Shown here: positions 8,999 to 47,506 of the stretch, piece by piece
Layout: every line of letters begins with the position of its first letter
How positions within the stretch are numbered: the first letter of the stretch is position 1
Sequence record: MT129652.1
Direction: 5' to 3' (one strand)
Origin: Escherichia phage MN01
Length of the DNA: 64,000 bases
Made by a program: the position numbers and the translations under genes
Notes under the pieces: generated by a model
Database searches by the model: none
Told to the model about the DNA's origin: nothing
Seen by the model: only the letters and a program-made list of their open reading frames with translations

Positions 8999-9358
8999 AT
9001 GGTAAGAGTTATCACTTTAGCCATAGGGTTAGTATTCAGCATGGGAGGAATAGCTTCAGTACAGAGCGACGACAACAACAGCATCATAGAATATGCAACG
9101 AGGACGGCTAAAGATTATTGCGCAGCAAGCAATGTGGATTGTGTAATCCAGTTCAGCGCCAAGCTCACCGCAGCCTATAAAGACGGCCAAAATGATGTTG
9201 AACACACGCTTTTGAAAAAGAATGTATTGTCCAACAAATATGAAAAGAAATTATTTGAAATGGATTGCATTCTGTCAAGTGCAAAATATAAGGCGGCCTG
9301 CACCAGTATGGTGGACAGGTTAGTGGATTCATATAATAGAGGATTGAACTCTAAATGA
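8999..9358 (+). CDS. secreted hypothetical protein (vs slot)
   Basis: N-terminal signal-like VITLAIGLVFSMGGIASV; identity by position only. Confidence 0.5.
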   Translation: MVRVITLAIGLVFSMGGIASVQSDDNNSIIEYATRTAKDYCAASNVDCVIQFSAKLTAAYKDGQNDVEHTLLKKNVLSNKYEKKLFEMDCILSSAKYKAACTSMVDRLVDSYNRGLNSK

Positions 9359-17662: not shown

Positions 17663-17743
17663 ATGGAATGGCTTGCTGTTCTTGGTTATGTAATCGTCGC
17701 CACAGGTATTCTGTGGCTTATATTCTCAAATATTGTAGGTTAA
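17663..17743 (+). CDS. 26-aa single-TM micro-protein
   Basis: MEWLAVLGYVIVATGILWLIFSNIVG between TAATAATG and TAATATG junctions. Confidence 0.4.
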   Translation: MEWLAVLGYVIVATGILWLIFSNIVG

Positions 17744-17744
17744 T

Positions 17745-17960
17745 ATGACCATTTTGAGTATCAGTATTATTTTTGGCTATCTTGTGGTAGGATTTATTAC
17801 TACCCTGTTGCTCCACAAGTTTGATAGTCCCTACGAAAGTGGGGACGAGTATGATGCGGCGTTCACAACATTTTGCTGGCCTATATTCTGGGTAGTCGCT
17901 GTTATAATGTGTGTGACCTGGCCTATTGCTAAATTCTATGAAAAATTATTTGGACTATGA
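17745..17960 (+). CDS. small 2-TM membrane protein (FCWP family)
   Basis: TM1-acidic loop-FCWPIFWVVAVIM. Confidence 0.55.
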   Translation: MTILSISIIFGYLVVGFITTLLLHKFDSPYESGDEYDAAFTTFCWPIFWVVAVIMCVTWPIAKFYEKLFGL

Positions 17961-31270: not shown

Positions 31271-31286
31271 GCCTCTTATTGAGGCT
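31270..31286. terminator. hairpin between convergent genes 46 and the HNH gene
   Basis: AGCCTC-TTATT-GAGGCT overlapping both stop codons. Confidence 0.5.
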
Positions 31287-31992
31287 TCATTTTGCAGTTA
31301 TCAAAATGCCAACGTTTCATATTAGCTGGCATACCGACTACATTACAGTGTGGACACTGAATTTTGGGGTCCACCTTTTTCTTCCGGTTTGGATTGGATT
31401 TGCAGAATTGTTGGTGAGTGGATATAACACACTTTTTACCTTCAAGCCCGCAAAATTCACAATTTAAAATTTCATGTTTAGCTTGTTTTAAACCTACTGA
31501 AATTTTTTGCTTTTGCTTTTCCGGAATAGTATGAACAACCTTGTTTGGACCTTTGGAACAGTTATCAAAATGCCAACGATTCATATTGCCAGCGAGACCG
31601 GTTTTTCCACAGTGTGGACATTCGACTCTCGGTTTTAATTTGGCGGATTCTGACATTTTCTTTCTGGTTTCATCGGAGAAAATTTTATTTTGTTGAGCTT
31701 CCAAGTTTTTACGACGAAGCCATCCAAATAATTTGTTTTTGCTTCTGTCGGCATTTGGTGCAGAAACTGTCATCATGCGCGCGGCATAGACCAAAGAAGC
31801 GTTATTTGGATGCATTTTGACCAACAGTTGATGGCAAACGAAATGTTCCTCGGGAGTTAAATCAACAAGATTTGAAGCGTCGTCAGCCCCACCCATACAA
31901 CGGGGTATAATGTGATGGCTTTCAGAGTATGTGGTTAATTTGCGATTCAATGCTCTGCTAATAAGCTTTTGGTAAATGATGTTATAATTCAT
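31276..31992 (-). mobile_element. free-standing HNH homing endonuclease (T4 Mob-like), antisense to flanking genes
   Basis: SESHHIIPRCMGGADDASNLVDLTPEEHFVCH HNH core; three C..C-x12-15-(H)..C repeats (CPHCGKTGLAGNMNRWHFDNC); start trimmed to MNYNIIYQ. Confidence 0.8.
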
Positions 31993-32032
31993 ATCAGACC
32001 CTTGTTTGATACTGCAACGGATAATATTATTT

Positions 32033-32224
32033 ATGAGCAATTTTTTAACCGGGCAGCATTTACTGGCTGTCCCTGAAATTAAACGGTATGTGTTAGTTAA
32101 TACCTTTTCGAAAGATGAACACCTTGTCACTGAACGTGACTTGCAAAACGCTTTCGGTGAAGAATATGTTAAAATAATCGCGAACAGACACAATGCCTGG
32201 TTCGCATATGAATACTTTGATTAA
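32033..32224 (+). CDS. hypothetical protein (63 aa, 45.2 slot)
   Basis: Position upstream of rpbA; size like T4 gp45.2. Confidence 0.45.
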   Translation: MSNFLTGQHLLAVPEIKRYVLVNTFSKDEHLVTERDLQNAFGEEYVKIIANRHNAWFAYEYFD

Positions 32225-44779: not shown

Positions 44780-44971
44780 ATGACTGCAATGTGTACGGGC
44801 TCTAAGATTTCGGTCTTCCAGATTTTTGAAGAATATGAAATCGTGTCGCAAGACCAAGAAGCAATCCATGTTATTGCTGATGATGGGGTTACCTGGATTA
44901 TTCCGTTGTATCATGAAGACACTTATGAAGTGACTGATGCAAATGGTGATAAAGCTATCTTCGTTGTATAA
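44780..44971 (+). CDS. hypothetical acidic protein (63 aa)
   Basis: SD GAGGT. Confidence 0.5.
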   Translation: MTAMCTGSKISVFQIFEEYEIVSQDQEAIHVIADDGVTWIIPLYHEDTYEVTDANGDKAIFVV

Positions 44972-44974
44972 ATA
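44967..44974 (+). promoter_or_regulatory. late promoter TATAAATA
   Basis: Exact 8-mer 17 nt upstream of ATG 44991. Confidence 0.6.
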
Positions 44975-44990: not shown

Positions 44991-45158
44991 ATGAAAACAT
45001 TCAAAGATTTTATCAACGAAGATATGGTTGCCGGTGATGCAGGCGGAAACCCAACTAATATCGCAACAGGTACCACTTCCGGGGCAGTTGTCAATAAAGG
45101 CCCTGAACAAATCCCATCAAAAAAGCGTAAGAACAAAGACGATAAACCTACAGTATAA
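44991..45158 (+). CDS. 55-aa protein with capsid-targeting-like N-terminus
   Basis: SD AAGGGGG; MKTFKDFINED resembles the IP targeting sequences MKTY[KQ]EFITEA in this window; basic tail KKRKNK. Confidence 0.5.
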   Translation: MKTFKDFINEDMVAGDAGGNPTNIATGTTSGAVVNKGPEQIPSKKRKNKDDKPTV

Positions 45159-45190: not shown

Positions 45191-46219
45191 ATGTCATATA
45201 TTGATAAAGAATTTGCAGTCAGAGCTTTATCGTATCAACCACGTTATAGAGAAGTCACCGGGAGCACATTTAAGGCAAACTGTCGTTGCAAGGTTTGCGG
45301 TGACTCTCAGAAAGATTCACACAAGGCCCGATTCTGGGCGTATACCAATCCGGCTGACGGTGCGGTTTACGTGAAATGTTTTAACTGTGACTACTCCACG
45401 CATATAAGCAAATACATAAAAGAGTTTGAGCCTGATTTACATCGGGAATATATGGTTGAGAAGTATAAGGAGAATGCCTTTGGCAGACAACGTAATGAAG
45501 TTGCAGAAACTCCGAAAGAACCAGAAAAAACTCCGGTTATTGAGCAACTTGCTTTTTGCGAAAGAATCGATACTTTACCAGAAGCGCATCCGATAGTTAA
45601 GTATGTAAAAAGTCGGTGTATTCCGAGCAATGTTTGGAACCGGTTATGGTTTACAAACAAATGGCCTGCATTAGTTAACTCCGTTAATCCTGGGACGTAT
45701 AAGAATGAAACGAATGAACCACGCTTGGTTATTCCTATCTTCAACGGCAAAAAAGAAATCGAATCTTTCCAAGGACGAGCTCTTCGCAAAGATGCACCAC
45801 AAAAATATATCACAATCAAAGCCCACCCAGAAGCTTCCAAAGTCTATGGTGTAGACAAGATTGACGAACGCAAGCGCGTGTGGGTAATGGAAGGTCCGAT
45901 TGATAGTTTGTTTATCCCTAACAGCATTGCGATAACCGGTGGAACATTAGCATTGGAAGCCGTTCCTTATGCAGAAACCCGAGTATGGGTAATGGACAAC
46001 GAGCCAAGACATCCTGATACGATTAAACGTATGAAGAAACTTGTTGAAGCCGGTGAAGCCGTTATGTTCTGGGACAATGCACCATGGCATACGAAAGACA
46101 TAAATGAGATGGTTAAATCAGAGGGTGCAACCCCTGAACAAATCGAATCATATATGGCCGATAACGTTACTCAAGGGCTGCTGGCGAGAATGCGACTTTC
46201 GAAGTACGCAAAAGTTTAG
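45191..46219 (+). CDS. 61: DNA primase gp61
   Basis: 342 aa; zinc motif CRCKVCGDS..H..; Toprim region; collinear with T4 gp61. Confidence 0.95.
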   Translation: MSYIDKEFAVRALSYQPRYREVTGSTFKANCRCKVCGDSQKDSHKARFWAYTNPADGAVYVKCFNCDYSTHISKYIKEFEPDLHREYMVEKYKENAFGRQRNEVAETPKEPEKTPVIEQLAFCERIDTLPEAHPIVKYVKSRCIPSNVWNRLWFTNKWPALVNSVNPGTYKNETNEPRLVIPIFNGKKEIESFQGRALRKDAPQKYITIKAHPEASKVYGVDKIDERKRVWVMEGPIDSLFIPNSIAITGGTLALEAVPYAETRVWVMDNEPRHPDTIKRMKKLVEAGEAVMFWDNAPWHTKDINEMVKSEGATPEQIESYMADNVTQGLLARMRLSKYAKV

Positions 46220-46416
46220 GAAGGGATTCCGGTAAAGTAACCGATGATGGAATGGATATGTTCCATTGTGACCTGGGGTAAGTGTACCCCTTGTGATGCA
46301 GCGATAGGCACAACCAGTAAGTTCCACAGAAAAACATCAAGAGCTAAAAAGCCCATGATTAGTTTTTTGTCTTTCTTACTGGTTAATTTCCAAATCTGAT
46401 AGAATAATGTTCCCAT
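46216..46416 (-). CDS. small 2-TM membrane protein, paralog B
   Basis: SD GGTGG 4 nt upstream on the minus strand; LWNLLVVPIAASQGVHLPQV. Confidence 0.6.
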   Translation of the reverse strand: MGTLFYQIWKLTSKKDKKLIMGFLALDVFLWNLLVVPIAASQGVHLPQVTMEHIHSIIGYFTGIPS

Positions 46417-46424
46417 AGTTCCAC

Positions 46425-46622
46425 CTATACAAGGCCGATTAATGCCAGTGAAACATCTACAACCGATTCGAGCGCGACGACTGGTAATATAATACCATAT
46501 GTCAATGCAACAGGAGCAACAATGAAGTTCCAGAGTAGAACTGAACAGAGCACCGAAAGGACCAGAATCGTTCGCTTACGACTGCCTTTGATGGCTTGAA
46601 TTAGACTAGATAGTTTTAGCAT
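46425..46622 (-). CDS. small 2-TM membrane protein, paralog A
   Basis: ATG at 46622 behind a strong SD AAGGAGG; LLWNFIVAPVALTYGIILPVV. Confidence 0.65.
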   Translation of the reverse strand: MLKLSSLIQAIKGSRKRTILVLSVLCSVLLWNFIVAPVALTYGIILPVVALESVVDVSLALIGLV

Positions 46623-46638
46623 ATATCCTCCTTTCTTG

Positions 46639-46646
46639 TATTTATG
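46639..46646 (-). promoter_or_regulatory. near-consensus late promoter CATAAATA (minus strand)
   Basis: Reverse complement of TATTTATG; 17 nt upstream of the minus-strand ATG. Confidence 0.4.
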
Positions 46647-46668
46647 CTTCAAACCAATACGATATAAT
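46645..46668 (+). promoter_or_regulatory. MotA-box middle promoter TGCTTCA-N11-TATAAT (gene 56)
   Basis: Read directly. Confidence 0.5.
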
Positions 46669-46706: not shown

Positions 46707-47225
46707 ATGGCTCATTTTAACGAGTGTTCTCAACTGATTGCGGGTGTTGATAAAGCTGAAGAAGCTTATGACAATGCAATTATCGAAGGTACTGACCCGC
46801 TGCAGATTATGCTTGATATGCAGAAATCTTTGCAGGTCCGGTTGGCTACTGAAAAACCAGAATATAACTCACATCCAGATGAATTGGCTACTGCAGGTGA
46901 TGTTGTTACCTGGCTCCGCAACCAGAAAGATTATATTGATGATGAATTCCGCGAACTGATTACTGCATTAGGTGGCATGTCCAATGGCGAGAAAGCTGCC
47001 TCGGCCGTATGGAAACCATGGAAAGCACAACATGGTGAAATGCAGCAAACCCTGATTAACGATTTGTCTCCTGAAGACCAGCTCGAAATTAAATTCGAAA
47101 TGATTGATATCCTGCACTTTGTTCTGAACATGTTCCATGGTCTTGGTCTATCTGCAGAAGAAATCTTTAAACTGTATTACCTGAAAAACGCTGAGAACTT
47201 TGCTCGTCAGGACCGAGGTTATTAA
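46707..47225 (+). CDS. 56: dCTPase/dUTPase gp56
   Basis: MAHFNEC..DPLQIMLDMQ..ETAGDVV..IDDEFRELI..EIFKLYYLKNAENFARQDRGY matches T4 gp56. Confidence 0.95.
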   Translation: MAHFNECSQLIAGVDKAEEAYDNAIIEGTDPLQIMLDMQKSLQVRLATEKPEYNSHPDELATAGDVVTWLRNQKDYIDDEFRELITALGGMSNGEKAASAVWKPWKAQHGEMQQTLINDLSPEDQLEIKFEMIDILHFVLNMFHGLGLSAEEIFKLYYLKNAENFARQDRGY

Positions 47226-47506
47226 TGGCTCGTTTAAATAAACGTCAGCTTAAGAAAGCTCGTAAGAAGCATATTAATGATATAATTGAAAACGCTAATG
47301 TTGAAATCTTTGTAGAACTTTTAGCCAATCAACTAAAAAATTTATCTAAACAAGAAATTGCTATGAATACTGAAAATGCTAAAAATGTAATCGAAACTCA
47401 TAATGTTTTTGCCCAAGCTACTGCTGAATACATTGCTAATCCTACTGCTGAAAATCTAGCTAAAATGACCGAAGCCAATAAAGCAGTCCAAGCCGCCAAA
47501 TTGTAA
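47225..47506 (+). CDS. hypothetical helical protein (93 aa)
   Basis: TAATG coupling. Confidence 0.55.
   Translation: MARLNKRQLKKARKKHINDIIENANVEIFVELLANQLKNLSKQEIAMNTENAKNVIETHNVFAQATAEYIANPTAENLAKMTEANKAVQAAKL

Follow-up and report, generated by a model that had tools for sequence, protein, structure and literature searches.

The 64,000-nucleotide (nt) stretch of Escherichia phage MN01 analysed here (MT129652.1, hereafter the window) carries two small genes, orfA and orfB, on the minus strand between the genes of the primase (61) and the dCTPase (56). orfA (46425..46622) encodes a predicted membrane miniprotein of 65 amino acids (aa) from an ATG at 46622 and is the T4-type allele of the family phrog_2024, and orfB (46216..46416) encodes a paralog of 66 aa, which is the JS98/Dhakavirus-type allele and is intact in the window. 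The Shine-Dalgarno sequence of orfA, AAGGAGG (46627..46633, minus strand), and the Shine-Dalgarno-like GGTGG of orfB (46421..46425, minus strand) are each located 4 nt 5′ of the ATG; the GGAGG of the former is kept in the orthologs and the latter overlaps the stop codon of orfA. Taking into account that only 8 nt separate the two genes, co-transcription and translational coupling are plausible. At the other end, the TAA of orfB and the TAG of the primase gene overlap by 4 nt (46216-46219) in convergent orientation. The original prediction for this DNA had described two minus-strand genes of 65 and 66 aa with strong Shine-Dalgarno sequences and a 4-nt convergent overlap with the primase stop, and all of these features were found.

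The paralogy of the two proteins, which had been proposed from a shared motif, was borne out by BLASTP (E 9e-10, 38% identity across 42 residues; 25% identical overall), and a trace of it persists at the DNA level as a 35-nt direct repeat, 71% identical, whose copies are 206 nt apart. Pairwise ratios of nonsynonymous to synonymous substitution rates (dN/dS) ranged from 0.02 to 0.56, which indicates purifying selection on both genes. Within the genus the values for orfA were 0.30-0.56, and orfB gave 0.019 against UPEC01, so that constraint persists where orfB is intact. Between genera the synonymous sites are saturated and the proteins are still ~75% identical. Residues W31, N32, P37, and P47 are invariant in all 20 family members aligned. 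The reading of these frames as spurious open reading frames (ORFs) was rejected by the dN/dS values and the conservation, and with high confidence orfA and orfB are judged from their sequences to be genuine coding genes and paralogs. A longer version of orfA from a TTG start (46425..46652 (−), 75 aa) was also discarded, given that it overlaps the Shine-Dalgarno sequence and adds a nonconserved N-terminus. A dual-start motif like that of lambda S was rejected as well, the Met1/Met6 pair being confined to Tequatrovirus alleles. The coding sequence of orfB also holds an inverted repeat of 22 nt (46312-46333 / 46363-46384), 77% complementary, with a spacer of 29 nt, and a search of Rfam detected no RNA family within the orfA/orfB interval.

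Both proteins matched phrog_2024 (PHROGs v4, unknown function) over their full length, orfB with E 1.1e-27 (residues 1-64 of 65) and orfA with E 2.3e-26 (residues 1-65 of 65), and all the 20 aligned relatives matched it too. The original prediction did not recognise the family; the databases do have it, as a hypothetical protein in hundreds of genomes, among them RB69 ORF029w, RB32 ORF030w, and VR7 ORF033w. It is therefore already catalogued yet uncharacterised, and not a new class. The exact protein of orfA is annotated as a hypothetical protein in Escherichia phage MN01. A tblastn search detected 694 phage records with the A type and 115 with the B type; orfA is 48-51% identical to the T4 and Mosigvirus homologs, and orfB is 74-79% identical to the single-copy genes of Dhakavirus and Klebsiella phages. 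An exhaustive profile search over 1.84 billion representative proteins returned only 19 clusters, none of known function, and the family is thus small and narrow; a word-index search with orfA gave close relatives only. Scans of both proteins against Pfam (E ≤ 1), NCBIfam, and PADLOC (E ≤ 10) gave no meaningful match. Foldseek found no match in the PDB, and in BFVD only members of the same family, one of them with the automatic name "Holin". Contradictory automatic names are attached to family members in public records ("DNA packaging ATPase", "thymidylate synthase", "dCTP pyrophosphatase", "holin family protein", and "Holin"), the misnamed records being those of UPEC01, Klebsiella phages EI, MY02, and SAKp28, Salmonella SHP1, phage 04086, CGG4-1, EAWsc9, and OE5505; no family-model match supporting any of these names was found in the scans made here.

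In every genome inspected (T4, T2, Dhakavirus JS10, Marfa, Q7622, Mosugukvirus PM2, CGG4-1, Mosigvirus phiC120 and PhAPEC2, and metagenomic loci) the gene is convergent on the 3′ end of the primase gene, usually with overlapping stops. This position is held in at least eight Tevenvirinae genera (Tequatro-, Mosig-, Dhaka-, Gapriver-, Marfa-, Kanagawa-, Mosuguk-, and Gelderlandvirus) and in metagenomic T4-like contigs, and the family is encoded by nearly all T4-type coliphages, T4 included. The T4 homolog is an ORF of 66 aa (MVQKLMALVNAIKGNKKR...) at 17738..17938 (+), located in the "gap" of ~310 bp between dam and gene 61; the presence of dam in the interval between genes 56 and 61 of T4, which the original prediction had mentioned, was confirmed in the T4 record. 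The ORF is preceded by GATAAATA and AAAGGAGG and overlaps the stop of gene 61 by 4 nt. It is annotated in neither AF158101.6 nor NC_000866.4, although the records of T2 and many relatives list its counterpart as a hypothetical protein, and no description of the T4 ORF or of its orthologs turned up in a literature search. The window resembles the other members of phrog_2024 in the size of the product, the position convergent with the primase, the upstream NATAAATA box, and the strong Shine-Dalgarno sequence. It differs from them in having two diverged tandem copies, of types A and B, the second without a promoter, whereas the other genera have one.

Upstream of orfA, a gp55-type late promoter box, CATAAATA (−13 to −6), is predicted at 46639..46646 (−), with a transcript start near 46633. 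The late promoter of T4 is TATAAATA at −13 to −6, with −13 as the variable position (PMC2988020, PMC1524935). The box of the window matches seven of the eight positions of this consensus, the sole deviation being at −13. The original prediction had pointed to such a 7/8 box interleaved with a plus-strand MotA box, and this arrangement was confirmed: CATAAATA, read from 46646 to 46639, overlaps by 2 nt the TGCTTCA at 46645-46651. The latter forms part of a middle-promoter-like element for gene 56 (46645..46668 (+); MotA box TGCTTCA, 11 nt, and TATAAT at 46663-46668), which was called by the T4 middle-promoter consensus and is conserved in the Gaprivervirus alignment. In all the orthologs, from at least eight genera, a NATAAATA or ATTAAATA box is found 13-21 nt 5′ of the ATG and is followed by GGAGG. 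The upstream regions are unalignable between genera apart from the NATAAATA box and the Shine-Dalgarno sequence, which are the sole conserved upstream elements. Marfa, Q7622, and several metagenomic loci (L021/22, L033/34) have the full TATAAATA consensus at this box, and the S16-like phages have ATTAAATA. Considering that NATAAATA is kept upstream of the gene in every genus examined and varies only at the tolerated position −13, a late promoter for orfA and orfB is very likely, its timing being deduced from the sequence. The window is strongly depleted of the heptamer ATAAATA (9 copies versus 21 ± 5 expected; every shuffle gave at least 9), as would fit with stray late promoters being selected against in a mostly early region. 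Three of the copies are on the minus strand, and two of these directly precede the minus-strand genes.

In the window orfB has no promoter box of its own and must therefore be co-transcribed with orfA, while the B-type gene of the single-copy relatives has its own NATAAATA box and AGGAGG. A scan for terminators 3′ of orfB gave nothing convincing, only a weak stem of 5 bp inside orfB (46354-46341, minus strand), and therefore the predicted late transcript would run antisense into the primase gene. Such read-through might be incidental or might serve an additional function. As a separate observation, a perfect TATAAATA is located on the plus strand at 44967-44974, 16 nt 5′ of a 61.1-like ORF (44991..45158), which suggests that 61.1, and perhaps the primase gene too, may be transcribed late on the plus strand, convergent with the late transcript of orfA and orfB.

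The AlphaFold2 (AF2) models showed the same three helices in both proteins, with a predicted local distance difference test score (pLDDT) of 81.7 for orfA (helices 2-11, 15-41, and 51-61) and 78.4 for orfB; over both proteins the bounds are 2-11, 14/15-41, and 51-61/62. Helix 1 is amphipathic and charged and is followed by a cluster of 4-5 Lys/Arg residues, beyond which basic residues are almost absent. This N-terminal cluster, by the positive-inside rule, predicts a cytoplasmic N-terminus. Helix 2 is one long membrane helix that contains the invariant Trp31-Asn32 and Pro37, to which type B adds an Asp. Such polar residues within the membrane helix suggest self-association or binding of another membrane protein. 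After this helix there is a turn, Gly43...Pro47, and then the short C-terminal helix, which is hydrophobic in orfA and amphipathic in orfB. The proteins had been described as small membrane proteins with two transmembrane (TM) segments. Hydropathy and the AF2 models support their being small membrane proteins. The first segment (TM1) is robust in both, with Kyte-Doolittle values of 2.1-2.4, and the second is TM-grade in orfA (2.27); in orfB, however, it is doubtful, with a value of 0.60 that is not TM-grade, and in the models of both proteins it corresponds to a helix of only ~11 residues.

The distribution of the alleles was informative about the relation between the two copies. Type A alleles are found in T4, T2, and Mosigvirus and as orfA in the window; type B alleles are found in Dhakavirus, Marfavirus, Kanagawavirus, PM2, and CGG4-1 and as orfB in the window; and in the S16-like phages, among others, the same position is taken by further types (type C in S16/STML-198). 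Only the Gapriverviruses have two copies, each other genus having a single one. orfA is intact in 33 of the 33 Gaprivervirus records examined, and the full two-gene arrangement is kept in only about nine phages among them. At least five independent lesions of orfB were found in these relatives, with orfA intact throughout: a nonsense mutation at codon 2 plus a 2-nt deletion in VR20; the same nonsense mutation plus a 26-nt deletion in RZ; loss of the start codon plus an 86-bp deletion in the EAWsc9 class; a 97-bp deletion removing the Shine-Dalgarno sequence, the start, and ~30 codons in the P896 class; and a 1-nt insertion in VR7. We read this pattern as functional redundancy of orfA and orfB, with the resident orfB being lost in most relatives. 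orfB would be the allele that normally adjoins the primase gene in the Dhakavirus/Gaprivervirus lineage, and orfA may be a T4-type allele which arrived with its own promoter upstream of the resident B-type gene; alternatively, the pair could be an old duplicate that was retained. Very different alleles were also noted at the Gelderlandvirus locus, B-like in CGG4-1 and of a "MSEKIKTPENKNL..." type in STML-198 and the S16-like records, which indicates that alleles have probably been exchanged there by recombination.

Distant homologs of the family were detected as the C-terminal part of proteins of 91-99 aa in viral contigs. This long form is widespread in prophages of Enterobacterales, in chromosomes of E. 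coli, Klebsiella, Serratia, Pectobacterium, and Pantoea (e.g., the 96-aa P0131). The alignment by hhalign of the short T-even family with the prophage long form had a probability of 96% and E 1.5e-9, running from TM1 through the C-terminus, and 24 of 24 long forms matched phrog_2024. The two forms align over the TM helix with W/Y-N...P, the G..LP turn, and the C-terminal helix, and by eye the N-terminal helix M(I/L)xx(I/L)(I/L)xxIK(T)G is also alike. They differ in that a polar Q/E-rich linker of ~30 residues (NQITLEETRxGFTWRQ) joins helix 1 to the TM helix in the long form, a place taken by the K/R cluster alone in the T-even form, and in that the long form lies in the tail/lysis region of the prophage and not beside a primase gene. 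In E. coli chromosomes the long form (9001-9291 of the loci L042-L044; also in L017, L023, L025, L036, and L040) is the last of a block of four genes (GIY-YIG-like, 186-aa, 103-aa, and 96-aa genes) at the prophage end beside mipA/gapA. A Phage_lysozyme gene lacking a signal sequence is located ~1.4 kb away on the opposite strand, and the only membrane proteins near this lysozyme are the long form and an 88-aa TM/coiled-coil protein with weak matches to Rz-like spanins.

A weak, subthreshold link to holins is given by two family models. PF11351 (GTA_holin_3TM, DUF3154) was matched by 22 of the 24 long forms, with a best E of 6.6e-4, and phrog_3427 ("holin") by 21 of them, with a best E of 4.7e-4; among the short or intermediate forms only 3 of 15 touched PF11351, at E ≥ 0.03. 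The holin-like idea of the original prediction thus gains weak support through a transitive path, from the short family to the prophage long form and from this to PF11351/phrog_3427, and is not supported by any direct match. Proteins of the PF11351 type have been reported as holins in RcGTA and, by remote homology, in ICP1 (TeaA) (PMC10132091, PMC7182436), and one published assignment of this type was made at an HHpred E of 0.03 (PMC10589892); such published assignments are no stronger than the link drawn here from the long form. ICP1 ORF137 (L046 12725-13273 (−), NC_015157), presumably TeaA, had no hmmscan match to PF11351 and no hhalign similarity to either family, and the published assignment of TeaA therefore depends on more sensitive remote-homology tools. 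The same absence of an hmmscan match to PF11351 and of hhalign similarity was observed for a PD0307-type protein encoded downstream of an M15 peptidase, an ORF which may differ from ORF 26 of the paper, and for its Vibrio-phage relatives; these comparisons with TeaA and PD0307 are uninformative and do not count as negative evidence. PF11351 and phrog_3427 consist of small proteins with an N-terminal helix and two C-terminal hydrophobic helices. The proteins of the window are small as well and have three helices in the AF2 models, of which helix 1 is amphipathic and charged, helix 3 has only ~11 residues, and, in orfB, a single segment is clearly TM-grade; they differ in that in T-even phages no endolysin gene is adjacent.

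By comparison with known holins, orfA and orfB have the general features of the class, which consists of small late proteins with at least one transmembrane domain: both have TM1, and their late timing is indicated by the promoter box. The class II holins and pinholins, such as S21-68 of phage 21, are alike in length (65-71 aa), helical-hairpin-like shape, late expression, and polar residues in the membrane helices. They differ in three respects: orfA and orfB carry their charge at the N-terminus and lack a charged tail at the other end; their second hydrophobic helix is too short or too weak for a membrane span, above all in orfB; and no signal-anchor-release (SAR) endolysin partner is known in T-even phages, which already use the unrelated T holin.

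What these genes are can be asserted with high confidence: they are real genes and paralogs, they belong to a conserved family driven by a late promoter and unannotated in T4, and orfB is redundant and decaying. The reading that we favour joins this identity to a function and is, taken as a whole, tentative. Each copy would be an inner-membrane miniprotein of ~65 residues with three helices, a compact relative of the three-helix holin-like prophage protein. Transcription of both genes would start at the gp55-type promoter CATAAATA and run opposite to the early and middle genes around them, with orfB probably coupled translationally to orfA. Late in infection the protein would probably insert into the inner membrane and might oligomerise by means of the Asn placed within the membrane, plus the Asp in type B. 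It would then modulate membrane permeability or the timing of lysis alongside the T holin, as an accessory protein and not as the primary holin.

Several points weigh against a holin-like role. Searches of Pfam, NCBIfam, and PADLOC with the proteins of the window, and of PHROGs with the short forms, gave no match to a holin family. The matches of the prophage long form to PF11351 and phrog_3427 are all subthreshold, the best one to PF11351 reaching 20.6 bits against a gathering threshold of 24.8 bits, and the attempts to bridge to PF11351 by way of TeaA or the PD0307-type protein failed or were uninformative. The neighbours of orfA and orfB are the primase and the dCTPase, and no endolysin gene adjoins them in T-even phages. 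The charged hydrophilic C-terminal tail that is typical of holins is absent; charged residues cluster near the N-terminus, no K/R is present after residue 20, and the last element is a hydrophobic helix. T4 t-null mutants do not lyse, and therefore the phrog_2024 protein is not a sufficient holin. Concerning expression, the predicted leader of orfA is only ~11 nt, with the Shine-Dalgarno sequence at its extreme 5′ end, and the main transcriptome/proteome study of T4 counted annotated features only, so that the ORF at 17738..17938, not being annotated, was not counted in annotation-based T4 omics.

A further point against a lysis function is that the swapping of alleles between and within genera would be explained no less well by an arms-race function, e.g., exclusion. 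The main rival is accordingly a late device of membrane conflict, which would act in superinfection exclusion or immunity or would neutralise a host membrane-associated defence, with its specificity set by the allele type. We regard it as unlikely, although types A, B, and C swap at a fixed slot between genera, even within Gelderlandvirus, and the window carries two types at once, a pattern that would be typical of loci under diversifying, conflict-driven selection. Within each type, however, the selection is strongly purifying and not diversifying. Neither PADLOC (E ≤ 10) nor other defence-related families gave a match, and the exclusion proteins of T4, Imm and Sp, are products of early genes, whereas the phrog_2024 gene has only a late promoter. 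The late timing indicated by the promoter box and the predicted inner-membrane location, together with the near-universal presence among enterobacterial T-even phages, would also suit a helper of morphogenesis or membrane assembly, e.g., a tether or chaperone for the assembly of heads or tail fibres at the inner membrane. This is improbable: the gene is not linked to structural genes, it resembles no assembly factor, and the prophage homolog is located beside a lysozyme gene and not among head genes.

A little less probable still is that the transcript is what matters, entering gene 61 late to shut off expression of the primase, with the peptide as a secondary product. The gene is always attached to the 3′ end of the primase gene, with convergent, overlapping stops and no convincing terminator 3′ of orfB, and T4 does transcribe both strands of some sites at different times (PMC2988020). 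Such a regulator accords poorly with a protein under strong purifying selection where synonymous sites are saturated, with the conservation of strong Shine-Dalgarno sequences, and with the occurrence of the family in prophages that have no primase gene nearby. Least probable of all is the suggestion of the original prediction that the two products form a holin/antiholin or pinholin pair, in the sense of an obligatory two-component system. The genes are adjacent, paralogous, and probably co-transcribed, and the intact orfB is under purifying selection (dN/dS 0.019). Nevertheless, all the other genera manage with one copy, no SAR-endolysin partner is known for T-even phages, and the inactivation of orfB at least five independent times in the same genus, with orfA intact, implies a redundancy that argues against an obligatory pair.

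The chief interest of these genes lies in the gap in the T4 annotation and in the possible link to the control of lysis. T4, whose genome is among the best studied, has a 66-codon gene which is unannotated and which has a strong ribosome-binding site, a late box, clear signs of purifying selection, and near-universal presence in relatives; its annotation should be amended, and the family names in public records are misleading. If the protein does act late at the membrane, it bears on the timing of lysis and on lysis inhibition in T-even phages, a classic question of which some steps still lack an explanation. The tandem arrangement found here, with the series of decayed orfB copies in relatives, offers a natural experiment on redundancy and allele replacement. 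It would go further, and in our judgement is unlikely, that this overlooked late gene encodes a miniaturised protein of the holin superfamily which is a missing part of the control of lysis or lysis inhibition, e.g., a co-holin or a membrane sensor acting with T, RI, and RIII, and that the window records an allelic replacement in progress.

With regard to the setting, the 3 kb around orfA and orfB are 92-96% identical to Gaprivervirus genomes (T-even coliphages of the VR7/VR20/UPEC01 type), and the local gene order on the plus strand is sp, 61.2, 61.4, 61.1, primase 61, dCTPase 56, and soc. The primase ORF (45191..46219, +), so annotated in UPEC01 and VR7, is the convergent neighbour of orfB with which it shares the overlap of stop codons. 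The dCTPase ORF (46707..47225, +) was assigned by Pfam matches to dUTPase_2 and PRA-PH and by the annotation in relatives. Between gene 56 and soc there is an ORF of 93 aa (47225-47506, +), at the place where VR7, VR26, and T4 have the homing endonuclease gene segF; this slot beside the orfA/orfB locus is a presence/absence polymorphism of a mobile gene. The window is almost wholly plus-strand, with 120 greedily selected ORFs spanning 56 kb, and its only credible minus-strand genes are orfA, orfB, and an ORF of 238 aa at 31276..31992 (−). The last one has the HNH-like motif HHIIPRCMGG...NLVDLTPEEH and an ATAAATA upstream at 32028-32034 (−), and it probably encodes a homing endonuclease.

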